Shown here piece after piece: positions 1-16,967 of a stretch of 25,367 bases of DNA; the stretch's first letter is position 1, and each line of letters starts with the position of its first letter. The notes below the pieces were generated by a model. It saw nothing but the letters and a program-made list of their open reading frames with translations. It made no database searches and was not told the DNA's origin. The stretch is from a virus (Duplodnaviria > Heunggongvirae > Uroviricota > Caudoviricetes): the IMG/VR virus record IMGVR_UViG_2690315922_000022, positions 1-25,367 of that record. One strand, 5' to 3'. Made by a program: the position numbers and the translations under genes.

Positions 1-1158
1 ATGCTCACCGTTAAACAGATTGAAGCGGCAAAGCCGAAAGAGAAACCATACCGACTTGTTGATGGTAATGGTCTGTACCTTTATGTCCCTGTATCCGGAA
101 AAAAGGTCTGGCAGCTTCGCTACAAGATTGACGGTAAAGAGAAAATCCTGACTGTCGGAAAATATCCGCTTATGACTTTGCAGGAGGCAAGGAATAAAGC
201 ATGGACTGCGAGGAAAGACATCTCGGTTGGCATAGATCCGGTAAAGGCGAAAAAGGCTTCGTCTAACAACAATTCTTTTAGTGCAATTTACAAGGAATGG
301 TACGAGCACAAGAAGCAAGTTTGGTCGGTAGGCTATGCAAATGAACTTGCAAAAATGTTTGATGACGACATTTTACCTATCATCGGCAGCCTTGAAATTC
401 AGGATATTGAGCCGATGCAACTTCTTGAAGTAATCCGCAGGTTTGAAGATCGCGGTGCAATGGAGCGAGCCAACAAAGCACGCAGAAGATGCGGCGAGGT
501 TTTCCGTTACGCTATTGTCACCGGAAGGGCTAAATATAACCCAGCACCTGACCTTGCAGACGCCATGAAAGGATACCGCAAGAAGAACTTCCCGTTTCTT
601 CCTGCAGACCAGATCCCGGCATTCAACAAAGCACTGGCAACATTTTCAGGAAGTATCGTATCGCTCATTGCGACCAAAGTTTTACGCTACACAGCCCTAA
701 GAACGAAAGAGCTTCGTTCCATGCTATGGAAGAACGTCGATTTTGAAAACAGGATTATCACCATTGACGCCAGTGTGATGAAGGGACGCAAAATTCATGT
801 GGTTCCTATGTCAGACCAGGTAGTTGAACTTCTCACTACGCTAATCTCAATCACCAAACCAGTATCAGAGTTTGTTTTTGCCGGGCGCAACGATAAGAAG
901 AAGCCAATCTGTGAGAACGCAGTGCTACTTGTGATCAAACAAATCGGATATGAGGGTCTGGAAAGCGGTCACGGATTCAGGCATGAATTCAGCACGATTA
1001 TGAACGAGCACGAATGGCCCGCTGATGCTATTGAAGTGCAACTGGCACATGCCAACGGCGGTTCTGTGCGTGGAATTTACAACCATGCTCAGTATCTCGA
1101 TAAGCGCAGAGAAATGATGCAGTGGTGGGCGGACTGGCTTGATGAAAAGGTGGAGTGA
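1..1158 (+). CDS. int: Phage integrase, P4-type tyrosine recombinase (IntS / Sf6-Int-like); N-terminal arm-binding domain plus C-terminal catalytic domain
   Basis: 385-aa ORF starting at window base 1 (MLTVKQIEAAKPKEKPYRL...); C-terminal GHGFRHEF and RGIYNHAQYLDKR motifs typical of tyrosine recombinases. I recognise it from memory as near-identical to E. coli CPS-53 IntS. A start upstream of the window cannot be excluded. Confidence 0.9.
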   Translation: MLTVKQIEAAKPKEKPYRLVDGNGLYLYVPVSGKKVWQLRYKIDGKEKILTVGKYPLMTLQEARNKAWTARKDISVGIDPVKAKKASSNNNSFSAIYKEWYEHKKQVWSVGYANELAKMFDDDILPIIGSLEIQDIEPMQLLEVIRRFEDRGAMERANKARRRCGEVFRYAIVTGRAKYNPAPDLADAMKGYRKKNFPFLPADQIPAFNKALATFSGSIVSLIATKVLRYTALRTKELRSMLWKNVDFENRIITIDASVMKGRKIHVVPMSDQVVELLTTLISITKPVSEFVFAGRNDKKKPICENAVLLVIKQIGYEGLESGHGFRHEFSTIMNEHEWPADAIEVQLAHANGGSVRGIYNHAQYLDKRREMMQWWADWLDEKVE

Positions 1159-1182
1159 TCCGCCTTAAAAACTATCGAATAG

Positions 1183-1230
1183 CACAAAGCCTTGCAATCC
1201 AGTGAAAAGCTTTGTGTGTATGAGTTTTTT
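1183..1230 (+). terminator. Putative int 3' stem-loop: 8-bp inverted repeat CACAAAGC...GCTTTGTG followed by a T6 run
   Basis: Perfect 8-bp inverted repeat at 1183-1190 / 1209-1216 with an 18-nt loop, then TTTTTT at 1225-1230. Loop length and spacing are non-canonical. Confidence 0.3.
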
Positions 1231-1311
1231 CTCATCAACTACCGCAAGTCATCGATCGATTGAGACTAGGATGATAGACTCCATGCCTTTAATTATTAGC
1301 TGATAGAAGAA

Positions 1312-1674
1312 ATGTTAAAGCTATTTGCAAAGTACACCTCGATTGGTGTGCTAAACACACTTATACACTGGGTGGTTTTTGGTGTCTGTATCTATGCAGC
1401 GCATACAAATCAGGCTCTGGCAAACTTCGCAGGTTTCGTTGTGGCAGTGAGCTTTAGCTTCTTCGCGAATGCAAAATTCACATTCAAAGCATCGGCTACA
1501 ACGATGCGCTACATGTTATATGTCACGTTCATGGGAGCGCTTAGCGCTGCTGTTGGATGGGCTGCTGATAGATGCGCACTTCCCCCAATCATTACTCTTA
1601 TAACCTCCTCCGCCATCAGCCTGGTGTGCGGTTTCGTCTATTCAAGGTTAATTGTCTTTAGGAGTGCGAAATGA
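1312..1674 (+). CDS. gtrA: GtrA, bactoprenol-linked glucose translocase (flippase), small 4-TM membrane protein
   Basis: 120-aa hydrophobic protein immediately downstream of int, overlapping the next gene by 4 nt (ATGA); size and sequence are typical of GtrA in serotype-converting phages. Confidence 0.9.
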
Positions 1675-2594
1675 AGATATCTCTTGTAGTTCCTGTCTTC
1701 AATGAAGAAGAGGCGATACCAATTTTTTATAAAACGGTGCGTGAATTCGAAGAGTTGAAGCCATATGAAGTAGAAATTGTTTTTATAAATGATGGTAGCA
1801 AAGACGCTACTGAGTCAATTATTAATGCTCTGGCTGTTTCAGATCCTCTAGTTATTCCTCTGTCATTTACTCGCAACTTTGGTAAAGAACCAGCATTGTT
1901 TGCAGGGTTAGACCATGCTACTGGAGATGCCGTGATTCCAATTGATGTTGACCTGCAAGACCCGATTGAGGTTATCCCTCATCTTATTGAAAACTGGCAG
2001 GCTGGCGCCGATATGGTGCTGGCAAAGCGTTCAGACCGCTCTACAGATGGGCGTCTGAAGCGCAAGACAGCAGAGTGGTTTTATAAGCTTCACAATAAAA
2101 TCAGCAATCCGAAGATCGAGGAAAATGTTGGCGATTTCCGGCTGATGTCCCGCGATGTAGTGGATAATATTAAGCTTATGCCAGAACGCAATCTTTTCAT
2201 GAAAGGCATTCTTAGTTGGGTTGGTGGGTCTACAGATGTAGTTGAGTATGTCCGTGCTGAGCGGATAGCCGGCAGCACGAAATTCAATGGATGGAAATTA
2301 TGGAACCTAGCACTTGAAGGTATAACAAGTTTCTCCACTTTCCCTCTGCGTATGTGGACTTATATTGGGCTATTCGTAGCTGGAATGGCTCTTTTATATG
2401 GCACATGGATGATTATCGATACCTTGGTGTTTGGGAATCCGGTTCGCGGTTACCCATCACTTATTGTATCCATTCTCTTCTTAGGCGGAATTCAGCTTAT
2501 AGGAATTGGCGTACTTGGTGAATATATAGGAAGAATTTACATAGAGTGCAAAGATAGACCTAGATTTATTATCAAGAGAATGAAAAATGAATAA
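1671..2594 (+). CDS. gtrB: GtrB, bactoprenol glucosyltransferase (GT2 family)
   Basis: 307 aa; N-terminal GT2 signature ([23 protein letters not shown]) and two C-terminal TM helices; coupled to gtrA and to the downstream gene by overlapping stop/start. Confidence 0.92.
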
Positions 2595-4017
2595 AACAAT
2601 TAAAATCAACTTCTACATACTATTTATTATTTTGTTTTTTATTATAACATGTAATATTTACTACTATGATGATGTATTTAGATCGTATTGGGGATATTAT
2701 GGTTGGTCTGAAGATGGAAGGCCTTTTGCAGATTTATTCTATAAATTATTTATTTTCTTTAGATCTGAAAGCATACCAGATATTTACCCACTACCACTAA
2801 TTTTAACGTCTGTGCTTCTTGTTATATCACTAACAAAGGCATTGCAAAATATACTATCAAAAGATGGGGTTATAGTTAATATAACTTTTGCAATATTTAT
2901 GCTTAATCCTTTTCTTTTGTCTAATATGCTATTTAGATATGATGGTGCATTTATGATTTTATCTATTGCACTTTCGGCTATTCCGTTCATTTTTACAAAA
3001 AGTAGAACATTCGCCATATCATCACTACTGTGCCTAACAATATCGCTTGGATTGTATCAGGCCTCAATAAATGTGTATATTGGACTTGCATCAGTAGTGG
3101 TTGCAATGGAAGCATTGAAAGGGGAAAAGTTTACATCTATAGCCAGCAGAGTGCTATTATCTGTTACATGCGTAGTCTCTTCATATGTTATATACTCAAA
3201 ATTAATACTTGAATCATTATCTTTAAATAATAACTTCTCGAAATATGCTCAAATAGTTGAATTAAATAAAGGAGGAGTCATCAATGTTTATGAGAATATA
3301 ATTAACGCAGTTAAAAAAATTGATGTTGCTCTTCATAGTGGTATTGGAACACCTCTTTATATATTTCTATCAATAATAGCCATATCATCTGTGTGTGTTG
3401 CCATTAAACGAAAACAATTTCAGTTACTATTTTTTATTGCTATATCTATTTTAGGTTGTTTCTTTTCTTCTTTTGGTGTGTCTGTCTTTGGGAAATCGCC
3501 AGTATTTGTGTCAAGGATATTTATCGGATTTGGTGTTTTTATAATGGCAGTTCCTTTGATTGGCTCAGCACTTCTTAATTGGAAACTTAATTACTTACTA
3601 TCATTATTCATTGCAATTCCTATGCTGTCCATCTTTTTTGCCACCATTAATGCCTCAAGAGAGGAATTTAAATTCCAAAACAATTTATCACTTCAAATGA
3701 TTAATGATATTAATCATAGCAAAGCTAAATATCTCGACTTTGTTGTTATTGATGGCTATGCGAAGAACTCCTCTGTTGCAAGCATAAATAAGAAAATATT
3801 TCCCGTAATATCTGATATATTGCCTCCTGTCTTTACAAATAGATATGATGGTGGGGTTTTTACATTGATGAGAAATGGACTAAAAGATGTTGTTAGTGCT
3901 GAGTCATCAGCTGCAGACAACGCGGTATCAATATCAGATGACGGAAATCTAATTTCTGACAATAATATATATAGCATTCATGCGACCAAAGATATTATTG
4001 TAATAAAATTAAAATAA
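2587..4017 (+). CDS. Serotype-specific O-antigen glucosyltransferase (GtrC-type polytopic membrane protein); exact specificity not identifiable
   Basis: 476-aa multi-TM protein as third gene of the gtr operon; very AT-rich compared with gtrAB, as is typical of horizontally acquired type-specific gtr genes. Confidence 0.8.
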
Positions 4018-4023
4018 CCCCTA

Positions 4024-4065
4024 GCCCCCCTCCCGCATCAACTCCAGTAATGGCGGGAGAGGGGC
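4024..4065. terminator. GC-rich hairpin between the convergent gtr operon and tailspike gene (probable bidirectional terminator)
   Basis: 13-bp stem GCCCCCCTCCCGC / GCGGGAGAGGGGC (12 of 13 paired) with a 16-nt loop; U-rich tract follows on the minus strand, A-rich on the plus strand. Confidence 0.45.
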
Positions 4066-4084
4066 TACAAAAAATCAAATATCA

Positions 4085-6148
4085 CTAAGAAAAAATCCAA
4101 TTACCATACATTCCAGTTATTTCACTATATGTGCCTTCTTTATTTTTTAATTTAATCCAAGCGCCGAATTCAGTGGTGGCTACTTGCGTTACTTCTGAAG
4201 AGTTACTTACAAACCTTATATTTGCTACACCTATTGCTCTACTTGGTGATGAGATTGTCATAGCTCTTATTATTTTTAACTCTCTGAAATCACCAGTGCT
4301 ACTTGCAATTATATCAATATCATTAGTGCTATGGTTAAATATAATGGTGTTATTTAACAGCTTTGTATTTTGAAAAGATGTTATTGTGGCAATCCCTCCA
4401 ATAAATCCTCTTATCTGGGCCGGGCCAGTATCTCCACTATCATAGGCTAATGATGTGGTTATATTATCTTCCTCCTTTCCTATATGTATATCAATAAAGT
4501 ACTCTTTTAAACTAATACCAGCCAAAACTAAAAATGTTGATATAGTAGATGTACATTTTTTAATAACCAGATTCTTAAAATTTCGAGATAACCCGCTGCT
4601 TATTGGATCAATAGTTCTAGGTAATAATCTGATTATTTTATCCCCACCAGCTATAGTAGTTTCATCAACAATTTCACCTATTTCCACAAAAAGGCGGTCA
4701 TCCCCCAGCATTTCAAAAACACAAAAGTCTAAAGGAGACGTTTTAAATACCACTCTATCAATTAAGATTTTCCCTATACCATTTCCCATAACTCTAGTAG
4801 CTGTCACCCCTCTGTTAGTCACATTCGTTAGTGTTGTATTCCCCGAGATGATTACATCAGCTACAAGACTGTCAGGGAAAATATTAAGTTCCAAACCAGT
4901 ATACGCACCATTGATGTATGGGTTTGAGATTTCACAATTAATCAGCCGAGGGACAGTGTGTCCAGGCACACTTTCGTCTGCCTCTGGTTCAATATCTATG
5001 CCAGATTTCGGCATAGCACCTGTAACACCTCCGTAGTCACCAATATTATAAATCTCAGGATTAACTATTATTATGTTTTCACCTGACGTTAGGCTTATAC
5101 CGTTACGCCTGCATTGTTTGATGATCGGTTTTTCTATATAGATATTTTCTGGGACCGTGCCATCGGTAGTCCCCCACTTCATGCCTATATATATTCCGTC
5201 GCCAAACATGTTGGTATACAGTCCACCAATAATACGAATATTAGAGGATTGAAGTATTGTAAGCCCCCACCCATGTTCTCCTTCGGATGTGTTTGTTAAC
5301 CGATCACCTTCCAGTACAGGATTATAAATATTTACATTTTTAACACCGTTTGCTATGTAAATGATATGGCTTTGTGGCCTGTTTTGATTTGCTAGTTTTA
5401 ATGCCCCATCCTTTTCAAACCTTATAGTGCTATTATCTACGCATCTTAACACAGATTTAAAAGCATCATTTCCAGGTGAAAAAGGGTCTTCATTCACAGC
5501 CATCAAGTTTTCAAATGATTTATCTATAATGAATTCTGCACCAATAGACGCTGCGGATTCATACGCTTTTTGTAGTGTTTGTGCGTCATTGCAAAAATCA
5601 GAAGCATAAATAGAGCTGGTTTTCTTTAATTCAAATATCCTACCGTTTCTGCTCCTGATAATTAATATTCCATCTGGGGTGAGCGTGGGGGTGGATGATT
5701 CATAAACATATCTACCATGAATCATTACATGATTAAATATATCTGGGACATCCTCTTGCTCTATATTAATAGCAACATATATAAGTTTATTACTTAACTC
5801 CCCCCTTAACTGATCAGGGTCATACTTCAGCACATTCTGGAAATAGAACTGCTGTACGCCATACGCATCATAAACAGCCATAGAATGGCCTTGCACGGTT
5901 ACGAACTTGGCAATCTGTCCGTTATATACAGGGTAACCAGCAGCGTTAATGATGATTGGTTGCGATACAGGAACGTGAGAGCCGTCTTCGTTCTCCACAT
6001 AAACCTGAATCTGGTTTTCAGGATTTACCGGGTCAGTATCAATTTTACCGATATAAATTTTGCCATTAGCTACGGCTTTAAAAGAACGCGCCATAGTGAA
6101 GAGTTGCGAAGGCATGCTAACTACAACATTGGCTGTAATGTCTGTCAT
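4085..6148 (-). CDS. Tailspike protein: P22/Sf6-type N-terminal head-binding domain plus divergent right-handed beta-helix receptor-binding domain (probable O-antigen depolymerase)
   Basis: 687 aa; the first ~110 aa ([34 protein letters not shown]...KYDPDQ) match the conserved tailspike N-terminal domain as I recall it; the remainder is AT-rich with beta-helix-like repeats ([22 protein letters not shown]); GGAG RBS 9 nt upstream. Confidence 0.85.
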
Positions 6149-6204
6149 TTAATTTGCTCCAGATACAAGGAATCGCCGCAGCATGGCTACGGTGAATTTT
6201 GGGC

Positions 6205-6230
6205 ATAAAAAAACCCAGCCGAAGCTGGGT
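6205..6230 (-). terminator. Intrinsic terminator downstream of ant
   Basis: On the minus strand: CCCAGC-TTCG-GCTGGG hairpin followed by a T7 run, about 20 nt after the ant stop codon. Confidence 0.55.
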
Positions 6231-6248
6231 CGTTGCGTTGGTTATCTG

Positions 6249-7127
6249 TCAGTAGTTATGTACTGAAGGAGGTAATTCTTTATTCTTAAGTCTCATCCAT
6301 GCGGAAAGATTCGTTGGTCCGTCTGGCTCATTAATATCAACATCTCGTGTGTGATTGATTAAAACGTCTCTCGCCATTCCGATAACATACGAGAACTCAT
6401 GACCGTAGTCGTAGCATCTGCCGGAATAGTTCGATTGAATTTGTTTTAGCGCCGGATACAGTTCGCGGAATAATGCCTGTGAGCGGTTAGCATAATCCCA
6501 TAACCATACAAGGCTGTTTGCTTCTTTTGCAGAAAGCTCGTCGGTTTTCTTCTCTTGTTTGCCAATGAACTCGCCTTCAAGCACTACCCTGTGGATGTAC
6601 TCTACGGCCAGCGGGATTTGTTCAATTGAAAGTTCATCAATACTGTCAATACCAAAACGCTGATGAACCATATTGTATGCATCGTCATAGCGAAGTCCTT
6701 TCTTTCCTACCAGCATGTTTACTGCATCGCGTAGCGGTGTTCTTTCCTCAACAGTGGTTTTCTTTCCTTTTACATACTCGCCATGTTTGCGAATTGAAGG
6801 CAGAACTTCTGCTGTTACCCATTTGCGGAATTTGTGCGGGACTGAACCTTTATTGACTGCATCGCGGCAGCGCAGAACCAATGTATACATACCTGATTCG
6901 CTCACAATGCTTAGATTCTGCTCACCACCAAGGGTGTAACTTAAAGTTACTCCCTTTTCATCGTCATCAAGTGCAGTAAGCGCCTTGCGTGAGTTAGTCA
7001 AAGCTAAAGCATCACAAACATCTTTAGCTACAAACCACGGCTCACCGCACTTGTTGATGACGCGGATTTCACTGTCGCCGAATTTGAAGATGGTGAAATC
7101 GTTTTGTGCCTTTGCTATACTTTTCAT
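6249..7127 (-). CDS. ant: Antirepressor Ant (Bro-N / KilA-type N-terminal domain plus ANT C-terminal domain)
   Basis: 292 aa (P22 Ant is about 300 aa); N-terminal [11 protein letters not shown]...[14 protein letters not shown] motif; located immediately downstream of the arc-like gene as in P22 immI. Confidence 0.85.
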
Positions 7128-7199
7128 GTCAATATTTCCTAATCCGATTTGTTGATACCGAAGCCCTGACTGTTACAGCAGTTGGGGCTTCAACTTTTT
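7128..7199 (+). ncRNA. sar: Candidate sar-like antisense RNA covering the ant RBS and arc-ant intergenic region
   Basis: Plus-strand hairpin GAAGCCC (7160-7166) / GGGCTTC (7185-7191) followed by T5 (7195-7199), antisense to the ant leader; no plus-strand gene is upstream. The 5' end is not defined and promoter elements are weak. Confidence 0.3.
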
Positions 7200-7330
7200 A
7201 GGCTGCGAATAAGACGCTGCACTATTTCTGAATTTAAAGACCTGCCCTCCTCCTTAGCCTTTTCCTTCAATTTTTCTTTAATCTCTGGCGGGATACGAAT
7301 CCCTAATGGAGCGATATCTCTAACTTTCAT
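7190..7330 (-). CDS. arc: Arc-like ribbon-helix-helix repressor
   Basis: 46-aa product from the internal Met (MKVRDIAPLGIRIPPEIKEKLKEKAKEEGRSLNSEIVQRLIRSLKS) with the RHH signature GRS-NSEI; the 87-aa upstream extension is rejected because it would run across the divergent promoter into mnt. Confidence 0.6.
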   Translation of the reverse strand: MKVRDIAPLGIRIPPEIKEKLKEKAKEEGRSLNSEIVQRLIRSLKS

Positions 7331-7440
7331 TTCTTTCCCAATTGCTACACCATGATAACTAAATACTACACCGTGTTTATTTAAAGTCAAAATTTTTTTG
7401 CCTACACTGTGTAGCAATGCTACAGCGTGCAGGAGGAAAA
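7331..7440. promoter_or_regulatory. Divergent Pant / Pmnt promoter-operator region with four CTACAC-type repeats
   Basis: Minus strand: -35 TTGACT (7390-7385), 16-nt spacer, -10 TAGTAT (7368-7363). Palindromes ACACCGTGT (7368-7376) and CTACACTGTGTAG (7402-7414) plus GCTACACC and GCTACAGC copies; AGGAGG RBS sits 4 nt before the mnt ATG. Confidence 0.5.
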
Positions 7441-7689
7441 ATGAAAGGTGCAAGAGATATCAGTCCCTTGGGAATTAGGATTCCAGACTATTTAAAGAAA
7501 CGCATTCAGCAGGAAGCGGATAAAAACGGCAGATCAATGAACTCAGAGATTGTGCTTATCCTTCAAAAACATGTTGATAATCTTGATGGCCCTCGCTCAC
7601 TTGAAGGATTCGCTAACCAAGAAGCTGATAAATTCAAAGAGGCGCTGCTTGAGACGCTGAAAACCATGTATGGCAAGGATGAAAAATGA
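7441..7689 (+). CDS. mnt: Mnt-like ribbon-helix-helix repressor with C-terminal coiled-coil
   Basis: 82 aa from the Met preceded by AGGAGG; N-terminus RDISPLGIRIPDYLKKRIQQEADKNGRSMNSEI is an RHH fold; length matches P22 Mnt (83 aa); divergent from arc-ant. Confidence 0.7.
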   Translation: MKGARDISPLGIRIPDYLKKRIQQEADKNGRSMNSEIVLILQKHVDNLDGPRSLEGFANQEADKFKEALLETLKTMYGKDEK

Positions 7690-7895
7690 ACAAAAAACAG
7701 TTTATTAAGTCAACAACGTCAAGCAAGGAAGAGCTAGAGAAGGAGCTAAACTCCCTGAAATATGCTCTGTGCCTGGTTTACTCAAGACTGCCAATGGAAG
7801 ATAAAAACGCCATTTACAATGAAATGATTAACAGCCTTGATTTTAACGATAGAGACCTAGCATCCCACCTCAACAGCTTCCGCGTCCCTGAGTAA
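7686..7895 (+). CDS. Hypothetical 69-aa protein translationally coupled to mnt
   Basis: ATGA stop/start overlap with mnt; AAGGA RBS; AT-rich; no family recognised. Confidence 0.45.
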   Translation: MNKKQFIKSTTSSKEELEKELNSLKYALCLVYSRLPMEDKNAIYNEMINSLDFNDRDLASHLNSFRVPE

Positions 7896-8055
7896 TTCTA
7901 TTGCGGATTTGCTTCTTACGGTGGTTTAAGCTGGAGAGCTTGGCTTCTGCTTCTGATATTTGCGCATCAAGATCTTTAAGCTCAAGATCTGAAAGTCGCT
8001 GGTCAAGCAGGGTTTGGTTCAACTCAATGTTGTTCAGGCGTTCTTCTATGGTCAT
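7870..8055 (-). CDS. Hypothetical 62-aa coiled-coil protein
   Basis: Internal Met with strong RBS (AAGGAGAAATC-ATG); heptad-like sequence (LNNIELNQTLLDQRLSDLELKDLDAQISEAEAKL); its 3' end overlaps the convergent 69-aa gene by 26 nt. Confidence 0.4.
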   Translation of the reverse strand: MTIEERLNNIELNQTLLDQRLSDLELKDLDAQISEAEAKLSSLNHRKKQIRNRITQGRGSC

Positions 8056-8196
8056 GATTTCTCCTTGTTGAGGTTGATGTGAAACGATTGATTGTATACG
8101 CACTCTTTTGTTAGCTAGTAGCTTTGCTTAATCGCAAGATAAAGTTTCTGATTAATCCCTAAAAATCAAAAAATAAAGTTAAAACAGGTACATGAT

Positions 8197-8400
8197 ATGG
8201 AATGGATCATAGGATTTGTTGTTCTTGTCTTCATAGCCAGTATGTTTAAACCAAGAAGTTGCGATATCTGTGGTGCTGGATTTAAGAAAAAGTACTTCAC
8301 ATGGACTATCGATGGAAAGAAACAGCATCTTTGTCCGTACTGCAACAGTAAAATGGAGAGACGCAACAGCGATAGGCGCTTTAAGGATCGATTTGGTTAA
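8197..8400 (+). CDS. Hypothetical small membrane protein with zinc-ribbon-like C-terminus
   Basis: 67 aa: N-terminal TM helix (WIIGFVVLVFIASMF) followed by CDICG...CPYC, then a basic tail; terminator follows immediately. Confidence 0.5.
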   Translation: MEWIIGFVVLVFIASMFKPRSCDICGAGFKKKYFTWTIDGKKQHLCPYCNSKMERRNSDRRFKDRFG

Positions 8401-8413
8401 CCATTTTATCTCC

Positions 8414-8449
8414 AACAAAAAACCCACCTGACGGTGGGTTTCATTTCTT
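8414..8449. terminator. Bidirectional intrinsic terminator
   Basis: AACCCACC-TGAC-GGTGGGTT hairpin flanked by an A-run upstream and a T-rich tract downstream; lies between the convergent 8197-8400 (+) and 8448-8867 (-) genes. Confidence 0.55.
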
Positions 8450-8867
8450 AATCTTGCTTCGTGGAAGGTATAAGAGATGCATTTGCCTCTTTTGGCTTCA
8501 ATGTATACATCCCACCATTAAATGGATCAACAGCAAGCCAACCAATTAACCCACCAAACACAAGGTTTCCACCAATATACCAACCATTAGCATTGGCTTT
8601 GATTGGCAGGGTAACTGATTCGTACCCATCCTTTTCCATAGTGATCTGGTAGCTCTTTTTGCCAAAATAACTACCATCTGACTTGGCAAGAGTTACTCCT
8701 TGTGGAGTCTTGCCTTGCGCAACAATCACGCCTGATTCATCTTTTACCTTAAAGCTCGCACCGGAAGGGTTGCTGTTCACTTGCACAAGTTGCGTTTCAT
8801 CACCAACAATAGTTGCGCACCCAGATAACATCATAGCGCCAGCAACGACGCCAATAATCCTCTTCAT
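8448..8867 (-). CDS. Outer-membrane lipoprotein with PEGA-like beta-domain and glycine-rich hydrophobic C-terminal motif
   Basis: Signal peptide with lipobox (MKRIIGVVAGAMMLSGC, Ala at +2); mature region VNSNPSGASFKV...GKTP...EKDGYESVT fits the PEGA pattern; C-terminal GGNLVFGGLIGWLAVDPFNGGMY. An alternative start 12 nt upstream (MEIDMKR) is possible. Confidence 0.6.
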   Translation of the reverse strand: MKRIIGVVAGAMMLSGCATIVGDETQLVQVNSNPSGASFKVKDESGVIVAQGKTPQGVTLAKSDGSYFGKKSYQITMEKDGYESVTLPIKANANGWYIGGNLVFGGLIGWLAVDPFNGGMYTLKPKEANASLIPSTKQD

Positions 8868-8988
8868 ATCAATTTCCATATTTAAAAAACCGGAAACATC
8901 CTAATGACAAACCATTCAAATGTGAAGTAGGCAAAAGATGTTTACTTTTTTCATGATATCCTGTGAAAAACTAAGGAGAGTTAACCAT

Positions 8989-9474
8989 ATGAAAAAATCA
9001 CTGTTAATTATCCCGCTTCTGCTGGTTGGATGCGCAAAAGTAAGTGACTATCAAGCAAGTTGCGAACAACGCTATCACAAGCTTAGCGATATGGCTAATT
9101 GCCTTGATGCCAGTGTGAAGAACGACTCACGCATGGCATCAGCACCAACACCTAAGTTGTATGTCCTTGCTGCAAAGATGCTCGGGCAAGGTGTCGATGA
9201 AGGCAAGATAAGTGACGCACAGGCAAGGCTTGAGCTTCAGAATCTTTATGTTCAATTACAAAGCCAAGAACAAGCCCAACAAATAGCACAAAGCCAAGCA
9301 TTCCAGCAGGCTTTATTGAATTATCAGGCTGTAAACACAATGCAAGCGATCGAGCAAAAAGCGAGACAGCCTGTTATAACTCAACCCTATCCAACACGCG
9401 TTGACACTTACACAAACTGCAATTCAGGGTTTGGAAATACAGTCACATGCAACAGTAGCAGTAACATAAGATAA
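8989..9474 (+). CDS. Lipoprotein with Gln-rich coiled-coil region, function unknown
   Basis: Start at the internal Met preceded by AAGGAGAG RBS; lipobox signal MKKSLLIIPLLLVGC (Ala at +2); several Cys and a Q-rich helical segment; divergently transcribed from the neighbouring lipoprotein. Confidence 0.6.
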   Translation: MKKSLLIIPLLLVGCAKVSDYQASCEQRYHKLSDMANCLDASVKNDSRMASAPTPKLYVLAAKMLGQGVDEGKISDAQARLELQNLYVQLQSQEQAQQIAQSQAFQQALLNYQAVNTMQAIEQKARQPVITQPYPTRVDTYTNCNSGFGNTVTCNSSSNIR

Positions 9475-9564: not shown

Positions 9565-11562
9565 CTATTCTGACAACGCATCAGACTTGGCACCCTGAGT
9601 AATGGCGTTAATGGCCTTTTGCGCCTGCTGCATAGCTTTCTCAAACGCTGTTGATCCGCGTGGGGTATTTGCCATTCGGAGCATTGCATTTCTGAATGGC
9701 TCGCTCTCATAGGCGCGAGTAAGAAGTCCGTAGCTTACCGCTGCGCCAGTTGTCGCCGGGTTCATTGCCGTCCCATACCCGATAATGAACGGGATGGTTT
9801 GCTGCCCTGTTGGTGTTGTTACTGCTGCTTTTGCAGCCTGCTGCGTGGATTGCAGGTAGTTTTTCAATCCTTTCAGATAAGCGGCTTCCTGACCTTTAAA
9901 TGTGATGCCAGTCTGGTTTTGCAGGATGTTAAGCTGCCGAAGGAACTGGTCAGGGGATCCGCCAGATTTCTCCATCGCCTTTCCAATGATGCCATTGCGC
10001 ATTTGCGCCCTGCCAACACGACCAACTGAGTTATACAGCGTCTTAATTTCCGATTTGTTCTTGCTGAATAGCATGTTGTTGACAACTTCCGGCGTCAGGT
10101 CGCCTTTCATGAGAACATTCTTCAGCCTGGTATTCTTTAGTTTCGCCGCTTCGTCAGCGTAGACGGCATTGGCCTGCTGATATTTACGGAGAGTATCGTT
10201 GCCAAGATTCTGACCAATGGCACCATTGATATCGTCTGTCATTGCCTTGTAAACGCGCTGAATGGCAGCATCGGAACGGTTTGGTAACACTGGTCGTTCC
10301 CCCTTCACGTCCATTCTGAACTGGCTGCGCAGATCGCTTAATTGCTTCAAATCCAGATTTACCGGACCATCAGGACTAGCATTGCGAATAAGCTCATCAC
10401 GATAGGATTGAAGTTTTGAAATCGTCTCGTTATCAGCGACCTTACCAAGCTTCTGCAGGTTAGATATCTCAGTATCAATCTGCTGAATTGCTCGCACAGG
10501 CTGAATGTTTACTCCAGCCATAGCATTCTGAACCTGCTCCAGTCGATTACCGGCAGCACGACGAATTCCTGATGTTTTCGCTTTAAGGCTGTCAATAACA
10601 ACTGCCGGATCGTACTCGCCGAATTTATCAGCAAATCTCTGCACCAACTGGCTTCTCGCTTCCTGTTGCGTTGCTCTCATTCCGCTTGTGCCAGCCAGAG
10701 GGATATTTTCTGCTGTAGTCTGCGCCATTTTTCCGACGCGGGAAGTTGGTTGTAACAGGTCTGTGGTGTGCAGAGGAACTCCTTCACGCTCTGCAAATCT
10801 GATAGCCTGTTGCGCTTCTGGTGCGATAGCACCACGAACGCCACGATAAGCAGCACCTAATCCACGTCCGGCAGCGTTAATAGCACCGCCAGCCAGCACA
10901 CCAACGCCTAAATCGGTGGCGAGTGCTTCCGCATCATCTTTCGCACTGTTTGCAGCAAGTGATCCAACTGCGTTTTCTGCGAGAAGGCGAGTTGCCCCCT
11001 GAGCAATTCGACCAGCAAGTGTTGGTGCCTGTGTTGCCGCTCTCTCAACGCCAGCAGGAGTGAGGTAAGGCAATGCTTCAGCAAACACCCTGCCCTCTGT
11101 CGTTTGTGGAGTCAGCGCGCCTTGCTGAAGGCCAAAGTCCTGCTCTAATCCCTGCGTTGTTACTCGTGGCGCTGGTTGATATGTACCATCGCCAATGCCG
11201 AGTTTACCGCCAGCCCATGCAGCCGCACTTGTTACAGCATCGGCAACTGATGCAGGTATGTTTGCCACGTTCACGCCAGCCTGCACCAGTCCGCGACCAG
11301 TCTCTTTTACTGCTTCGCCAAGATCAGACATAAATCCACTTTGCTGTGGTTGTTGCTGTGCTACTGGTTGCTGTGTCTCCACTTGCTGCACAGATGGCAA
11401 TGGATAGGCAGCATAGAAAGCTTGCTTAGCCTGCTCTGCATTTTCTCCGGCTTGCGGGGCCACGACTTCATTGAAGTATTGCTCCTGAGCCTGCGCTTTT
11501 TGTTCTGGTGCTAACGCCTGATACTGTGGAGAGGCGATAACATCTTTCCATGCTTTAGCCAT
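9565..11562 (-). CDS. Ejection (E) protein, P22 gp16-like
   Basis: 665 aa, Ala/Gln/Gly-rich; position and composition match P22 gene 16; start overlaps the gp20 stop by 1 nt (TAATG). Confidence 0.8.
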   Translation of the reverse strand: MAKAWKDVIASPQYQALAPEQKAQAQEQYFNEVVAPQAGENAEQAKQAFYAAYPLPSVQQVETQQPVAQQQPQQSGFMSDLGEAVKETGRGLVQAGVNVANIPASVADAVTSAAAWAGGKLGIGDGTYQPAPRVTTQGLEQDFGLQQGALTPQTTEGRVFAEALPYLTPAGVERAATQAPTLAGRIAQGATRLLAENAVGSLAANSAKDDAEALATDLGVGVLAGGAINAAGRGLGAAYRGVRGAIAPEAQQAIRFAEREGVPLHTTDLLQPTSRVGKMAQTTAENIPLAGTSGMRATQQEARSQLVQRFADKFGEYDPAVVIDSLKAKTSGIRRAAGNRLEQVQNAMAGVNIQPVRAIQQIDTEISNLQKLGKVADNETISKLQSYRDELIRNASPDGPVNLDLKQLSDLRSQFRMDVKGERPVLPNRSDAAIQRVYKAMTDDINGAIGQNLGNDTLRKYQQANAVYADEAAKLKNTRLKNVLMKGDLTPEVVNNMLFSKNKSEIKTLYNSVGRVGRAQMRNGIIGKAMEKSGGSPDQFLRQLNILQNQTGITFKGQEAAYLKGLKNYLQSTQQAAKAAVTTPTGQQTIPFIIGYGTAMNPATTGAAVSYGLLTRAYESEPFRNAMLRMANTPRGSTAFEKAMQQAQKAINAITQGAKSDALSE

Positions 11563-12857
11563 TAATCACCCCATAGTGAAGAAAAGTTACTGCCAGTAGT
11601 AGATTGTTGCCCTGGCATATTCTGCACCGGCTCCTGATAATCAAACTGTTTTTTAACAGTGCTCAACTTGCTTTCAAGCTGATTTCTAATCTTTCCGATA
11701 GAGTCACGAAAAGCCTTTTCACTCATTTTGGGGCTTAGGGCACCAACCGCATCGGATAATTTTTTACCCTCAGCATCTGAAAGAGCGCCCATACCCTTCA
11801 GGGACTGCACCATAGGAAGGAATGTTTGAGCTTTAAAGGTGTCGAGCCTTGCTTCAAAGTTAGCCGCATCAGAGCCAGGAACTGTCGGAAACGCTGAGCG
11901 AATTCCTACTGCTTTTGAAAGGCCGGGGCTTTGCTCTATCTCGTTGAGAGAATCAAGCGCGGTGCTGAACGTATCAACTGCACCCTGAGCGGCGGCCTGC
12001 CTGTCAGCGCGGGCTATGTCAGCCTTTTGCCGAACATCTGCCTGTTTCTGTTTTAGCTCTTCAAGCTTTAACTGATTGCTTTCTCTGGCTATCTGTCTGT
12101 CCAGAGCCTTTTCTTGTAATTCTGCTCTTTGTATTTCGCGGGAAAGAGCAGCATTCTGTGCGCTGATGTTCTGTCCACGTATCTGGATGTCCTGACCACG
12201 CGCTGTTAGTGCTTCTCCAGCCTGATTGCTGCGGATTGTCTCTGCCAGCCTACCTCGGTCAATCTCACGACCAGCCATCTTGTCCTGAACATTGAAGTAG
12301 TCAATCGGACCGAGAGCAGCCATCCCAAGGTGATCAACAAACTCACCAAATCCTGAAGGATTCTGCTGATACATCTGAGCAACGTTATTAGGGTCAACAC
12401 CGACGCTAGTCAGTTCCTTGGCGTTGTTTTGCAGCCATGATTGCATTGCTTCTGGAGACGATGCCGCAAGACGAGCGCCAGCCGCTAAGGTGCCGATAGA
12501 ATTGCGCTGGTCTTCATCAATGAATCCCATGCCTTTACGAACGGATTCAATCTGGTCCGGATATTGAGTAGCCAACTGACGCAAAGCACCGCGATCACCA
12601 GACGCATAAGCATTAGCGTATGCCTGCTGAAATTCTTTCTGCCGCTGAGCCTGCTTTTCCTGCTGAAACACCCCCGCAATACCTGAAAGGCCTTGCAAAG
12701 CAGTCAGCCCAACATTGTTAGCGCCGGAACGCTCAATATCATTGTTCTGCCTGATAAGCTGAAGCGTATTGCCGATGTCATTTACGCTAGGAGCGTTTGA
12801 GTTGACGCCACCGATACCAGCCAACAATCCGCCATTTGATCCTTGCCAAGTAGCCAT
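11562..12857 (-). CDS. Ejection (E) protein, P22 gp20-like
   Basis: 431 aa; N-terminus MATWQGSNGGLLAGIGG... typical of gp20-type injection proteins; conserved order 7-20-16. Confidence 0.8.
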   Translation of the reverse strand: MATWQGSNGGLLAGIGGVNSNAPSVNDIGNTLQLIRQNNDIERSGANNVGLTALQGLSGIAGVFQQEKQAQRQKEFQQAYANAYASGDRGALRQLATQYPDQIESVRKGMGFIDEDQRNSIGTLAAGARLAASSPEAMQSWLQNNAKELTSVGVDPNNVAQMYQQNPSGFGEFVDHLGMAALGPIDYFNVQDKMAGREIDRGRLAETIRSNQAGEALTARGQDIQIRGQNISAQNAALSREIQRAELQEKALDRQIARESNQLKLEELKQKQADVRQKADIARADRQAAAQGAVDTFSTALDSLNEIEQSPGLSKAVGIRSAFPTVPGSDAANFEARLDTFKAQTFLPMVQSLKGMGALSDAEGKKLSDAVGALSPKMSEKAFRDSIGKIRNQLESKLSTVKKQFDYQEPVQNMPGQQSTTGSNFSSLWGD

Positions 12858-12866
12858 GATGACCCC

Positions 12867-13562
12867 TTAAAACAACGAGCCAAGCAGGCCAAGCCCGCCA
12901 CCAATTGCGGCGCCTAATCCAGTACCAAGTCCGGGGACAATAGAGCCAAGAGCGGCCCCAGTCATAGCTCCTGAAGCTCCTCCGCTAATTGCTGTCTGAA
13001 GACCTGATGGCTTATTGGCATTAGCAGCGGCGAGAGCTGCGCTTTGCTGTGCAATGCTGCTCATGTTGTTGGCGTATGTCTGCCCGGCGTTCGCCTGACC
13101 TTGCAACGCACCAAGGCCAATGTTTGCCAGATTGTTGTAGTTGCTCATCTGGTTTGATAACCACGACTGACCGAGAGTCGGCGCAATCGTAGCCAGTTGA
13201 TTGCTTGTGGCTGTCGATCCAAGTCCACCCGTTGCCTCCGCTGCAGCAAGACTCTGGTAACGCGCCTGACCTGCAAGGTCTTTATACTGCTGAGAGTTGT
13301 AATACTGATTAAGTGCCTGCCCCTGTCCTTCTAAACTGGAAAGATTCTGAAGCTGGTTAACATACTGCTCCGCAAGCGGCGTGAACGGAGCAAGGTTTTT
13401 CATGATCGTCTGCCACTGCTGATTTTGCAGGTCTGCGGCATACTTCTGAGCTTCTGCTGCATACTTTGCGCTTTTATCAGAGCTGCCACCTTTCCCGCCT
13501 TTTTCAGGGCAATAAGGTTCCTCGCCGCGCAGTTTTCTGCCCAGCTTAAATGCATATAACAT
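12867..13562 (-). CDS. Ejection (E) protein, P22 gp7-like
   Basis: 231 aa (P22 gp7 is 229 aa); N-terminus MLYAFKLGRKLRGEEP...EKGGKGGSS and glycine-rich C-terminus GAAIGGGLGLLGSLF match gp7 as I recall it. Confidence 0.85.
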   Translation of the reverse strand: MLYAFKLGRKLRGEEPYCPEKGGKGGSSDKSAKYAAEAQKYAADLQNQQWQTIMKNLAPFTPLAEQYVNQLQNLSSLEGQGQALNQYYNSQQYKDLAGQARYQSLAAAEATGGLGSTATSNQLATIAPTLGQSWLSNQMSNYNNLANIGLGALQGQANAGQTYANNMSSIAQQSAALAAANANKPSGLQTAISGGASGAMTGAALGSIVPGLGTGLGAAIGGGLGLLGSLF

Positions 13563-13564
13563 GG

Positions 13565-14023
13565 CTATCTCCCGTGATTCAGGAAGTCGATTAGTTCTTC
13601 GCGTGTCGCGCTGTAAAACGTCACGTCATCCACGCCTTTGAAGTATTTCTTGATGGTTCCTACACGCTTAAGGCCAATCATTGCGCAATACATCTGACCG
13701 TGGCGGAATTTGCGCGCAGCGAACGATGTGACGCACTGAACGGTGGTGTTAGTCAGAATGTATCGCCAGAACGCCAGCCCGATTTCCTTGCTGAAGCCGC
13801 GAATCTCTGGCAGGTACATGGCGTGGCAATCGAATGTCAGCGGCTGAATCTCCTGATAGTAAACAATTCCGCCGAACTGCCCGTGCACGTTCACCTCAAA
13901 GTAACGGCAATCAGGTTTGTAGTCGTATCCATCACCGTTGTTGCTCCCGGCGATAATGTCAGGGTGATTTCCTACGGCTTCTATCAGGTCGATGTTTCGC
14001 GTTGGTTTGAACTGAATCATCAC
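13565..14023 (-). CDS. P22 gp14-like head/tail accessory protein
   Basis: 152-aa ORF between the tail needle and gp7, the position of gene 14 in P22-like genomes; 4-nt overlap with the needle gene. Assignment is by synteny only. Confidence 0.55.
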
Positions 14024-14868
14024 TGCTCCGCGATTATCTTGATGGTTGTGGCAGTAAACGCCGCACCATTTGACTGAATGGTTAACGTGCTGCCATTTGT
14101 GGCAAGAAAGCCGTCTTTATCCACGCTGAAGAACGTAGCTAACAGGATGTTATCGGTTGTTGTCGCCGAGTTACGACTGCTTACCAGTGTGTCAGGAACA
14201 GAGCCGGAAAAGGTTAGCTGCATTGACCTGTTTGCGGTTCCGCTGGGCCACGTCCCGACAATCGACAGCTTGAAGAACAGGGTTTTGTTCTCGTTGAACA
14301 CAACCATCTTGTTGTTAACGGTGTCGAAGAATGGTGCCAACGCGCCGGATGACGGCGTGAGCGTTTTCAGCAGGCTAACAAGGTTGGTCGGCGCTGTCGG
14401 AATGGTTACAGATACGCCAGAGTAAACAACCTCTGACTTTTTGCGAGTAGTGGCATACTCCAGAGCATCAATGCGCGTTTCATGGTCTGAAAGCGTGTTT
14501 TGAATGGCGACAACTTCATCAGTCAGATAATCAATATCGTTTTCTGCTGTCGTTAATCGCGAATCAAGGCCGACTATCGCCGCTTCTGCGTTAGTGATCC
14601 TTGTTTCGTGGTCCTGTATCTTCGCTTCAGCCAATGCCAGTCGAATTTCGTGATCGACCAGAATCACATCCTGCTCATCGTTCCTGGCTTGTGCGTCATA
14701 AGCGCCCTGTCCGGCCTCGTTGGCCTTGTTCGCCACGTTACCAACATCAGTGCCCTGTGCGATAACGTAAAGCAGATACGACTGCGAGAAGATATTGCGT
14801 GGAAGGACTGATGTGTCGAGCCGTGTAGCCTGAATGATTACCGGCACATTGAGATTCGAATCCGCCAT
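14020..14868 (-). CDS. Tail needle (P22 gp26 family) with C-terminal knob domain (Sf6-type)
   Basis: 282 aa; N-terminal [43 protein letters not shown] matches the gp26 tip; central coiled-coil heptads; extra ~100-aa C-terminal domain absent from 233-aa P22 gp26. Confidence 0.85.
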
Positions 14869-16286
14869 TACTCAATCCTTATCTGAGCGCCAGACAGAGT
14901 GACAGGTGACTTCGTGATAACGCGCAATTTGAAGCCGACATTTTTCCTGATGCGCCCGACTCGCTTCCACAAAACACGTTTGTCGTAAACGAACGGTTCA
15001 TTCTGCTCAATCATCTGCTCACGACCGTAATTGATGCCGTCAGTGGTTGCAGAGAGGAACAGGCGGTCGGCGTACTGAGCCACGCCAGTGGATGACTCCA
15101 CCTCCAGATCGAAGCATCTGGCGTTATCCGCTTTGAACAACGGAGTAAACAGCAGGTGTTCTTGCTGTAGCCCATACTGGCTGCTGATGTCGAATTGCAA
15201 TTTCCCGGTCACGGACTCCAGCTTATCGCCGCACGTTATCTGATTGCCTTCGTAAATGAAGTCGATAGCGCGGTACACATCGTCATACAGACCTGTTTTC
15301 AGCACACACCATTGCGGACCATTGGCGCTTGAAGATGCGTCGTACACCAGAACATGGCGCGGAAGATGGATAATCAGCAGCTCATGCGCATCAAATCGCA
15401 GAGACTCCATCACACCATCAGCCAGTTCATCAGCAGTGTAGGAGCGGAGAATTTTCTCAATGCTCGCGCTGGCGATTGGTGAAACCTGACCGGATCCGAT
15501 GATGTATACAGATGGCGCACCTGTTGCCGGATTGCTGATGAACGCATAGGAATCAGCGAATGGCGTTTTGCAATAGGTTCCGGCAATACCTTTCTGCACC
15601 ATCAGCGATGGTTGTGCAACATACAAAGCGGCACCAACGGTGGTTGCACCAGTCAGGGAGAAATATTCAATCGTCGATGAACCAAAGCAGACGATGAAGT
15701 CTCGCCATGTTCCGATGCCGATGATACCGTCAGGCTGAGACTCGGCACGATATTGTGCGCTGTATCGGTCAGGATGTGATTCGTCTTCAAGGTCAGTGAT
15801 AAACCATGAATCAGTGCCGTCTTTTGACCACGCATAACGCCCACGTAAGCGCGTAATGTCGCGGACTGAACCTAACTCATACTGCGTGAATCCGCTGTCT
15901 GTAGGCCAGTTTGAGACGGTTTTAACCGTACCATCATAGCGATACTCGACCAGTTGACCATTAACGCCTACTGCCTGTGATGTCCTACCGTGTGCCATTG
16001 ATACGCGACCACTTCCGGCAACATCACCGACCTCGCTTTCGCCCTTATACAACTTGCCACCGCAAACGCGATAAACAGCATTCTGCGCCATGTTGTACTC
16101 GACACCGCGCGATACACCATTCACATCAGAACGTTTGGCAATGCCCGGGAATGAGCGAAGATATCCGCTGCTGTTAAGGATTTCTTTGGGCGTAGCCAGC
16201 ATATTCACTGGCAGATAGTCGATATAGTCGGCGTTTCGAAAGTCTTTGCCGACACCTTTCATAAGCGGAAGTTGCTGAATCGGCAT
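14868..16286 (-). CDS. Tail hub / head-completion protein, P22 gp10-like
   Basis: 472 aa, the same length as P22 gp10 and near-identical over long stretches as I recall it ([16 protein letters not shown]...[10 protein letters not shown]). Confidence 0.9.
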
Positions 16287-16295
16287 TTATTCACC

Positions 16296-16757
16296 TCACG
16301 TACTCGGATCATCTTTCTCGATGTAAAACCGATTCCACGTAAACGCGCTTTTGTTACCACTACCGCGAGGCATGTCATTTCGCCGCTCAAGTGGTGGTAT
16401 TTTGGTTAAAGCGATACAGATTGTTTGATATGCACTGTCAGCAGCGGTAAGGAGAGCGTCCGACGGCTGAATGACGTTATCCATGCACACTTGCACAGCG
16501 AGTTTCAAAGCGACGCCATCATTTGCCCATGCAGGGATACCTGAATCATCGTCAGGTAACGGCATGATGCCGTTTTCTGTATCAGCAAACTGATACCCAA
16601 GCTCGATACCTTTCGCCTGCCATGCTGCCATCATGTCTTCGAGGTCATTAATGGCATCTTCAATTGCCTGAGGGTCAGCATCTGTCAACGTGGCATTGGA
16701 ATACAGCCCGGCTTTTCGTAAAGCCTTTAGAACGAGATCACCCTTCGTTTTCGCCAT
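16296..16757 (-). CDS. Head-to-tail adaptor, P22 gp4-like
   Basis: 153 aa; MAKTKGDLVLKALRKAGL...ATLTDADPQ resembles P22 gp4; conserved position between coat and gp10. Confidence 0.8.
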   Translation of the reverse strand: MAKTKGDLVLKALRKAGLYSNATLTDADPQAIEDAINDLEDMMAAWQAKGIELGYQFADTENGIMPLPDDDSGIPAWANDGVALKLAVQVCMDNVIQPSDALLTAADSAYQTICIALTKIPPLERRNDMPRGSGNKSAFTWNRFYIEKDDPST

Positions 16758-16926
16758 CTTCTTCCGCCTTAGCCACTTTTTGCTTCGTTGCGGTTTCTTC
16801 AGGAGTTTTTACCCAGCCTTTTTTCAGGTGAGATTTAACTTCTTCGTCATCAACAATGATGTAATCGACGGCAAACTGACCGCAGGTGATCATGTTGCCC
16901 GGCTTATAGAGCATTGTTCGTGCCAT
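16738..16926 (-). CDS. Hypothetical small protein between coat and gp4
   Basis: 62 aa from the internal Met with GGGAGAAGACA-ATG RBS; acidic C-terminus; overlaps the gp4 start by 20 nt. Confidence 0.4.
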   Translation of the reverse strand: MARTMLYKPGNMITCGQFAVDYIIVDDEEVKSHLKKGWVKTPEETATKQKVAKAEEDGENEG

Positions 16927-16934
16927 TGTCTTCT

Positions 16935-16960
16935 CCCAATAAAAATGGGGCCGAAGCCCC
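16935..16960 (-). terminator. Intrinsic terminator/attenuator downstream of the coat gene
   Basis: On the minus strand: GGGGC-TTCG-GCCCC (UUCG tetraloop) followed by ATTTTTATT, 8 nt after the coat stop codon; overlaps the RBS of the next ORF. Confidence 0.5.
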
Positions 16961-16967
16961 ACCTAAA

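Follow-up and report, generated by a model that had tools for sequence, protein, structure and literature searches.

What does a phage tailspike recognize when its virion-attachment end is familiar and the rest of the protein is not, and how did two such parts come to be joined in one gene? This question is raised by the virus record IMGVR_UViG_2690315922_000022 (IMG/VR; Caudoviricetes), of which positions 1 to 25,367 were analyzed as one stretch of 25,367 nucleotides (hereafter, the window). The window carries on its minus strand a tailspike gene at 4085..6148, an intact open reading frame (ORF) of 687 amino acids plus a stop codon. We think it likely that this is the tailspike of a P22/Sf6-like temperate phage of Escherichia albertii, an emerging enteropathogen, and that its β-helix domain, acquired by recombination, recognizes and most probably hydrolyzes the main chain of the O128/EAOg8 O-polysaccharide. 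The O128 serogroup of Escherichia coli, to which the argument below repeatedly returns, includes enterotoxigenic, Shiga toxin-producing, and enteropathogenic strains, and the sugars of its O-antigen are galactose (Gal), N-acetylgalactosamine (GalNAc), and fucose.

The two parts of the tailspike

An earlier note, made from the DNA letters without database searches, had taken the first 110 or so residues for the conserved P22/Sf6-type tailspike domain and had placed a break in the sequence right after the hexapeptide KYDPDQ. Both points held. The Pfam family Head_binding (PF09008) covers residues 1-113 of the spike, with all 113 profile positions aligned at E = 3.6e-66 and a score of 220.9 bits (cut-off, 24), and phmmer searches against the PDB gave near-identical alignments to Sf6 gp14 (7sg7) at residues 1-122 and to P22 gp9 (2xc1) at residues 2-125. 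The identity to the Sf6 tailspike across residues 1-122 was 88.5% by tblastn. We assign residues 1-113 (5810..6148, minus strand) to the head-binding, or virion attachment, domain, with the KYDPDQ hinge (residues 108-113; 5810-5827, minus strand) at its C-terminal end. Beyond this point the similarity stops: no solved tailspike in the PDB aligned past residues 122-125, just beyond the hinge, and in 1,145 of the 5,426 complete E. coli genomes that formed our survey set the DNA match was confined to nucleotides 1 to 341-363 of the gene. Similarly, the part common to more than 25 distinct PHROG tailspike families was residues 1 to about 120 only, and a scan of the spike protein against NCBIfam gave no match. 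As the earlier note had also supposed, the remainder of the protein is unrelated in sequence to the catalytic domains of P22 and Sf6, and the same is true for HK620 and SEN22; identity to characterized tailspikes is confined to the N-terminal ca. 125 residues. A match to phrog_8280 (SEN22-type tailspikes annotated with "colanic acid degradation") reached residue 316 and was considered as a sign of a second mosaic junction, but was dropped because BLASTP against the SEN22 spike found real similarity to about residue 120 only.

The two parts differ in base composition as well. The guanine-plus-cytosine (GC) content falls along the gene from 0.435 in codons 1-115 to 0.363 in codons 116-687, and that at third codon positions from 0.44 to 0.28, so that the gene does become AT-rich after the hinge; for the remainder of the window, from 7128 onward, the GC content is 0.493. 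The drop in the receptor domain corresponds to z = 2.5 against the N-terminal domain and z = 10.3 against the remainder of the window. When the window gene was compared with the six E. coli alleles described below, the synonymous divergence (dS) was 0.25-0.44 for the head-binding part against 0.08-0.21 for the receptor part, that is, 2-5 times greater in the former within the same gene pairs, which indicates that the two halves have separate histories and were joined at the hinge. The ratio of nonsynonymous to synonymous divergence (dN/dS) in these comparisons was 0.01-0.05 for the N-terminal domain and 0.10-0.18 for the receptor domain, pointing to purifying selection on both halves with function retained, and each of the seven sequences (the window and the six E. 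coli genomes) keeps the ORF intact. Judged from these rates, the head-binding domain is conserved through strong constraint rather than through recent common descent.

The receptor-binding domain (residues 114-687; 4088..5809, minus strand) is predicted to consist of a cap, a right-handed parallel β-helix, and a C-terminal β-rich part. We modeled residues 116-687 as a monomer with AlphaFold2, using an alignment of 29 homologues (A1) as input, and obtained a nearly all-β structure with a mean predicted local distance difference test score of 92.8 and a predicted template modeling score of 0.90. A Foldseek search of the PDB returned the Klebsiella K1 lyase, K64-1 S2-4, Acinetobacter Fri1 gp49, HK620, and CBA120 TSP2 at 8-15% identity, and the solved structures nearest in fold were capsule depolymerases from phages of Klebsiella and Acinetobacter. 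The predicted structure and the Foldseek result thus agree that the β-helix is kept past the hinge; according to the model, the receptor domain has the fold expected of a tailspike, and no solved structure is closely related to it. The Pfam profile Beta_helix (PF13229) scored 18.1 bits on the spike, under its gathering cut-off of 25.9, and among the close homologues it scored 28.6 bits (above the cut-off) in P0005 and 25.4 bits (just below it) in P0003. Three features by which a P22-like tailspike is known, namely, a PF09008 N-terminal domain, the position of the gene, and a β-helix receptor domain, were found.

The same receptor domain is borne on differing N-termini. Full-domain relatives with 56-70% identity carry the P22-like PF09008 domain (P0004, P0010, and P0015), the TSP1/gp66-type adaptor PF18668 (P0002, P0011, and P0013), or neither of the two (P0003, P0005, P0012, and P0016), and their backbones are Lederbergvirus-like, N4-like Gamaleyavirus, and two distinct siphoviruses with tape-measure genes. 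Distant homologues (27-31% identity) were found in Acinetobacter phages and genomes. The closest copy in a sequenced phage is the terminal spike of Escherichia phage vB_EcoP_PW8 (Gamaleyavirus, PQ362703), which is 67.5% identical over residues 129-675; PW8 differs from the window phage in being an N4-like lytic podovirus with a different N-terminal adaptor and an avian-pathogenic host. This distribution over varied N-termini and backbones, together with the greater dS of the head-binding part, bears out the receptor-domain swapping that the earlier note had proposed. Its description of the domain as novel stands in part: the domain is uncharacterized, but it had already been seen, since RefSeq holds proteins 96-98% identical from six E. 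coli strains and its 90% identity cluster has 152 members.

Association with O128-type O-antigens

Which hosts carry this domain? The full spike gene was present in six of the 5,426 surveyed genomes, at 94-96.6% nucleotide identity, and a sensitive blastn search of the same genomes for diverged receptor-domain alleles found none beyond the six. As a marker of O128, we used wzy from the O-antigen cluster of the O128:H27 strain 90-9281. This wzy occurred in 23 of the 5,426 genomes, and all six receptor-domain carriers were among those 23 (hypergeometric P = 2.9e-15, or 2.5e-10 if the carriers represent four independent lineages); one carrier, strain 90-9281 itself, is labelled O128:H27. The association is not clonal, because receptor-domain alleles cut across the groups formed by the chromosomal flanks of the carriers, of which there are at least four, 1-9% apart. 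Thus, strains E41 and BUCT2930 have receptor-domain alleles that are 99.9% alike and flanks that are 91.6% alike, and strains WS4437A-1 and BUCT2930 have flanks that are 99.9% alike and receptor-domain alleles that are 96% alike. The rest of the prophage also differs among the six, in needle type and in the lengths of the ejection proteins. Their tailspikes (e.g., WP_249821906 of strain 90-9281) are full-length orthologues of the window spike with 94-97% nucleotide and 96-98% amino acid identity, and these prophages share with the window the argW-side site next to int-gtrABC and the same partner gene, gtrC, for an O-antigen glucosyltransferase. They differ from it in their host species, in the lack of an upstream ant gene, in a head-binding part that is more diverged than the receptor part, and in the generic annotation of the spike.

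The host of the window phage is of another species and has a related O-antigen. The window is identical (100%) to BBVO01000022.1 over all 16,148 nucleotides available, and the chromosomal sequence beside the prophage on that contig shows 88-89% identity to E. coli. BBVO01 is the genome of E. albertii NIAH_Bird 26, which has the O-genotype EAOg8 (Ooka et al., 2019, supplementary table; PMC6927306). In the same study, EAOg8 agglutinated with antisera against E. coli O128 and O55, its wzx and wzy were 89.3% and 88.1% identical to the O128 genes, respectively, and its main chain was described as closely resembling that of O128, the terminal side sugar being colitose (PMC6927306). Because the spike occurs in E. 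albertii EAOg8 as well as in E. coli O128, the window host provides independent support for the assignment to an O128-type backbone, and it suggests that the domain recognizes the backbone more than the side sugar. The carriers with an assigned O-type are restricted to O128-type hosts, namely, the six E. coli strains with the O128 wzy and the EAOg8 strain of E. albertii, whose O-genotype cross-reacts with O128 antiserum. The different O-antigen depolymerase specificity that the earlier note had expected can therefore be narrowed to the O128-type backbone by the overlap of carriers and wzy and by the EAOg8 host.

The O-antigen cluster of strain 90-9281 also contains a gene for a CatB-related O-acetyltransferase (20145-20702 of the extracted locus). 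The O128 receptor may be O-acetylated, and this could matter for recognition by the spike.

Exchange at the hinge of P22-like tailspikes is well documented in two large tailspike-serogroup surveys, which also report that receptor domains move between viruses of the Lederberg-, Gamaleya-, Kutter-, Kaguna-, and other groups and that prophage spikes can be used for O-serogroup prediction (PMC10408124, PMC10370184). In the main text of both, O128 is absent (PMC10408124, PMC10370184), and our literature search found nothing tying O128 to a tailspike, depolymerase, or receptor-binding protein. The domain swap itself is ordinary and well known; the O128-type specificity has not been described before.

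Predicted action of the receptor domain

If the domain acts on the O128-type backbone, where might its active site lie? The alignment A1 revealed conserved core motifs on successive turns of the β-helix, at residues 281-389 (4982..5308, minus strand): G-D282-R283, E291, G-D317-G-I-Y-I-G, R347-R348-N349-G-I-S, and S-G-I-D385-I-E387-P-E389. Across the 29 sequences, D282, R283, E291, D317, R348, N349, D385, E387, and E389 are invariant or nearly so, and their conservation makes these core-motif residues candidates for the active site. At E ≤ 1e-3, an exhaustive search found 1,742 clusters with the core, of which 453 reached E ≤ 1e-10 and 35 reached E ≤ 1e-30; coverage of the full domain was seen in few, so that the putative catalytic core is widespread and the complete domain rare. 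The A1 family profile also matched the tail fibre gp22 of the Bacteroides phage crAss001 (7qoj_J; E = 2.4e-26; residues ca. 247-493 of the family profile), an unexpectedly clear link from an enterobacterial spike domain to crAss-like phages of the human gut. About 245 core residues align, and the motifs GD..GEWG.G, GDG(I/L)YIG, RR(N/Q)GIS, and PK(S/A)G(I/L)DIEP are shared, whereas the phage lineage, the host phylum, and the other architecture of the protein are unrelated. Most other PDB matches of the profile fell at positions 7-186, which correspond to N-terminal adaptors that other proteins in the alignment have and the window spike does not, and were set aside; there were two further weak matches at positions 111-235 (E = 8.5e-4 and 1.8e-3).

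The receptor domains of P22 and Sf6 are endorhamnosidases for rhamnose-containing O-antigens. Although Sf6 gp14 and P22 gp9 have the N-terminal domain, the gene position, the KYDPDQ hinge, and the plan of an adaptor followed by a β-helix in common with the window spike, they show no detectable sequence similarity to it after about residue 125, and the window domain associates with the O128-type Gal/GalNAc backbone instead of rhamnose O-antigens. The tailspike of HK620 (2vji), an endo-N-acetylglucosaminidase for O18A1, is directed to a different host serogroup and is 7-10% identical in the receptor domain, and its catalytic residues D339/E372 could not be mapped onto the window spike by sequence. 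Because the phmmer alignments end at residues 122-125 and the structural alignments show 7-10% identity, without sequence homology, the spike lies outside the enzyme families of P22, Sf6, and HK620 and is like them in fold only.

By analogy with these phages, the spike is most likely an endoglycosidase specific for the O128 backbone. As is known for the family, residues 1-113 would dock the spike, presumably a homotrimer with six copies per virion, onto the tail hub in the manner of P22 and Sf6. The receptor domain, which would have been gained by recombination after the KYDPDQ hinge and would form a right-handed parallel β-helix, would bind and most probably cleave the O-polysaccharide and thereby give the virion access to the outer membrane, as in P22, Sf6, and HK620; D282, E291, D317, D385, E387, and E389, on consecutive turns of the helix, are the candidate catalytic groups. 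After lysogeny, the gtrABC genes with a matching GtrC would be expected to glucosylate the same O-antigen and block superinfection.

Several other readings were weighed against this one. Cleavage by β-elimination requires a uronic or similar acidic sugar in the substrate. The O128 unit is described as having four sugars in its backbone and a single side branch, with no acidic sugar among those named (PMC10304059), for which reason we favor a hydrolase over a lyase; although the folds of the K1 lyase, the K5 lyase, and alginate lyase/epimerase rank high in structure searches, the identity to lyases is 8-15%, and a polysaccharide lyase seems very improbable. It is also conceivable that the domain binds the O128-type O-antigen and leaves the backbone uncleaved, either as a lectin-like adhesin or by stripping a substituent such as O-acetyl (cf. 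G7C gp63.1). An acetylated receptor is imaginable in view of the acetyltransferase gene in the O128 cluster, and non-enzymatic β-helix proteins, e.g., the PfbA adhesin, are among the fold neighbors. However, in the deacetylating spikes known so far it is an SGNH esterase domain that acts rather than a β-helix, and the strict conservation of Asp, Glu, and Arg on successive turns, which recurs in the 453 clusters at E ≤ 1e-10 as well as in crAss001 gp22, is a pattern like that of an active site, so that we regard such an action as unlikely.

That the receptor is some other surface glycan co-occurring with O128, for example a capsule, is suggested by the Klebsiella and Acinetobacter phage capsule depolymerases that rank nearest in the Foldseek search and by the Acinetobacter origin of the distant homologues. 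This appears quite improbable to us, because the known feature common to carriers in at least four E. coli backgrounds and another species is the O128-type O-antigen locus or serology, the spike gene is paired with GtrC, an O-antigen modifier, and a group 4 capsule would consist of the O-antigen polymer itself; moreover, one survey gives the O-antigen as the characteristic receptor of single-spike P22-like phages (PMC10408124). Finally, the gene might be a decaying prophage gene that serves no current function, as the spike of WS4437A-1, which sits in a remnant with most structural genes lost, could suggest, but the ORF intact in seven of seven sequences, the low dN/dS of both domains, and the full set of P22-like structural genes in the window leave this hardly credible.

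Some points speak against an O128-specific hydrolase all the same. The predicted fold by itself does not fix the chemistry, as its neighbors include epimerases and lyases besides hydrolases. The annotation of the PW8 copy reads only "similar to hypothetical protein", and the paper on that phage gives no host serogroup. The exact spike protein is found on 18 public contigs, and the EAOg8 assignment concerns one of these. Seventeen O128 genomes have no spike gene, which is to be expected for a gene carried by a prophage.

Prophage context and the pairing with gtrC

The tailspike gene stands in the position of P22 gene 9, after arc/mnt/ant and adjoining gtrCBA-int. The window begins exactly at the ATG codon of an IntS-like prophage integrase gene (1..1158, plus strand; Pfam Phage_integrase and Arm-DNA-bind_3), which is followed on the same strand by gtrA (1312-1674; Pfam GtrA_DPMS_TM) and gtrB (1671-2594; Pfam Glycos_transf_2), both generic parts of an O-antigen glucosylation operon, and by a gtrC-type gene for a serotype-specific O-antigen glucosyltransferase (2587..4017; PF14264 Glucos_trans_II, E = 3.3e-30), which is convergent with the tailspike gene. 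As in P22, the gene next upstream of the tailspike is that for the antirepressor Ant of the immI region (6249..7127, minus strand; Pfam Bro-N and P22_AR_C). A terminator-like hairpin between ant and the tailspike start (6212..6231, minus strand), a pattern match from a consensus scan with an 8-bp stem including five GC pairs and a following run of T, sits where P22 has its ant terminator. Two ORFs of the Arc ribbon-helix-helix repressor family lie between Ant and the late structural genes, one on the minus strand (7190-7453, with TTG as its listed start) and one on the plus strand (7417-7689); they are divergent with overlapping 5' ends and make up the arc/mnt pair of the immI region. The former is probably shorter than listed, as a gene of 66 amino acids is called there in BBVO01000022.1. 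Farther upstream, gp16-, gp20-, gp7-, needle-, gp10-, and portal-type genes and terminase genes form a full P22-like structural set, the members of which show 94-96% DNA identity to Sf6, CUS-3, Kapi1, and similar phages. Between immI and the gp16-like ejection gene lie ORFs at 8448-8879 (minus strand, 143 amino acids) and 8938-9474 (plus strand, 178 amino acids), which could be moron or superinfection-exclusion genes; Pfam matched neither of them.

On the host side of BBVO01000022.1, int is followed by a tRNA-Arg-like sequence, recognized by eye, and then directly by mlaA and fadL; at the place of yfdC and yfdF in the E. coli loci, this contig has no called gene. The ant gene is missing from each of the six E. 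coli prophages that bear this spike, and in these the distance from arc to the spike gene downstream of it is about 120 bp. The locus of E. coli WS4437A-1 contains a prophage remnant beside tRNA-Arg (9715-18140 of the extracted locus), which has lost most structural genes and keeps a DnaB-like fragment, a truncated ejection-protein gene, arc, an intact tailspike gene, gtrCBA, and int. This suggests that the gtr/spike end is kept after the rest of the prophage decays.

In contrast to gtrA, gtrB, and int, which are generic yfdG/yfdH/intS-type genes (for gtrA and gtrB, the identity to their yfdG/yfdH-type counterparts in these six prophages is 90-93%), gtrC is found, at 94% identity, in exactly the six complete E. 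coli genomes that carry the spike domain. Its GC content of 0.305 makes it the most AT-rich gene of the window. Since gtrC is confined to receptor-domain carriers, the receptor-using and receptor-modifying genes are evidently inherited together. Thus, the receptor domain and gtrC (2587-5809; 3.2 kb, GC 0.31-0.36) behave as one serotype-matched cassette in an otherwise ordinary mosaic prophage. A connection of the gtr operon with the O128ab/O128ac subtypes was considered and set aside as speculation, because the papers found give serotype lists only.

A wider proposal, to which we hold only tentatively and which we think somewhat doubtful, is that this receptor domain belongs to an uncharacterized glycoside-hydrolase family, of which it would be the first member to be assigned, marked by the motifs GDR, GEWG.G, GDGIYIG, RRNGIS, and SGIDIEPE, and ranging from enterobacterial phages to crAss-like phages of Bacteroides (the 453 clusters at E ≤ 1e-10). 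Its substrate would be the fucosylated or colitosylated Gal/GalNAc backbone common to O128 and EAOg8, and the spike domain and its matched gtrC would cross species as one serotype cassette.

The current understanding of tailspike modularity is unchanged by these results, which are conceptually ordinary and practically useful. They add one more specificity, that for the O128-type backbone, to the catalogue of tailspike receptor domains and O-antigens of the E. coli group, and the receptor domain could be employed as a reagent for typing or capture, or be swapped as a module into engineered phages. The occurrence of one type of spike on a backbone common to two species, despite a different side sugar, gives a hint at the part of the O-unit that is recognized, and a spike domain that travels with its matched gtrC illustrates how the use of a receptor is coupled to its modification.

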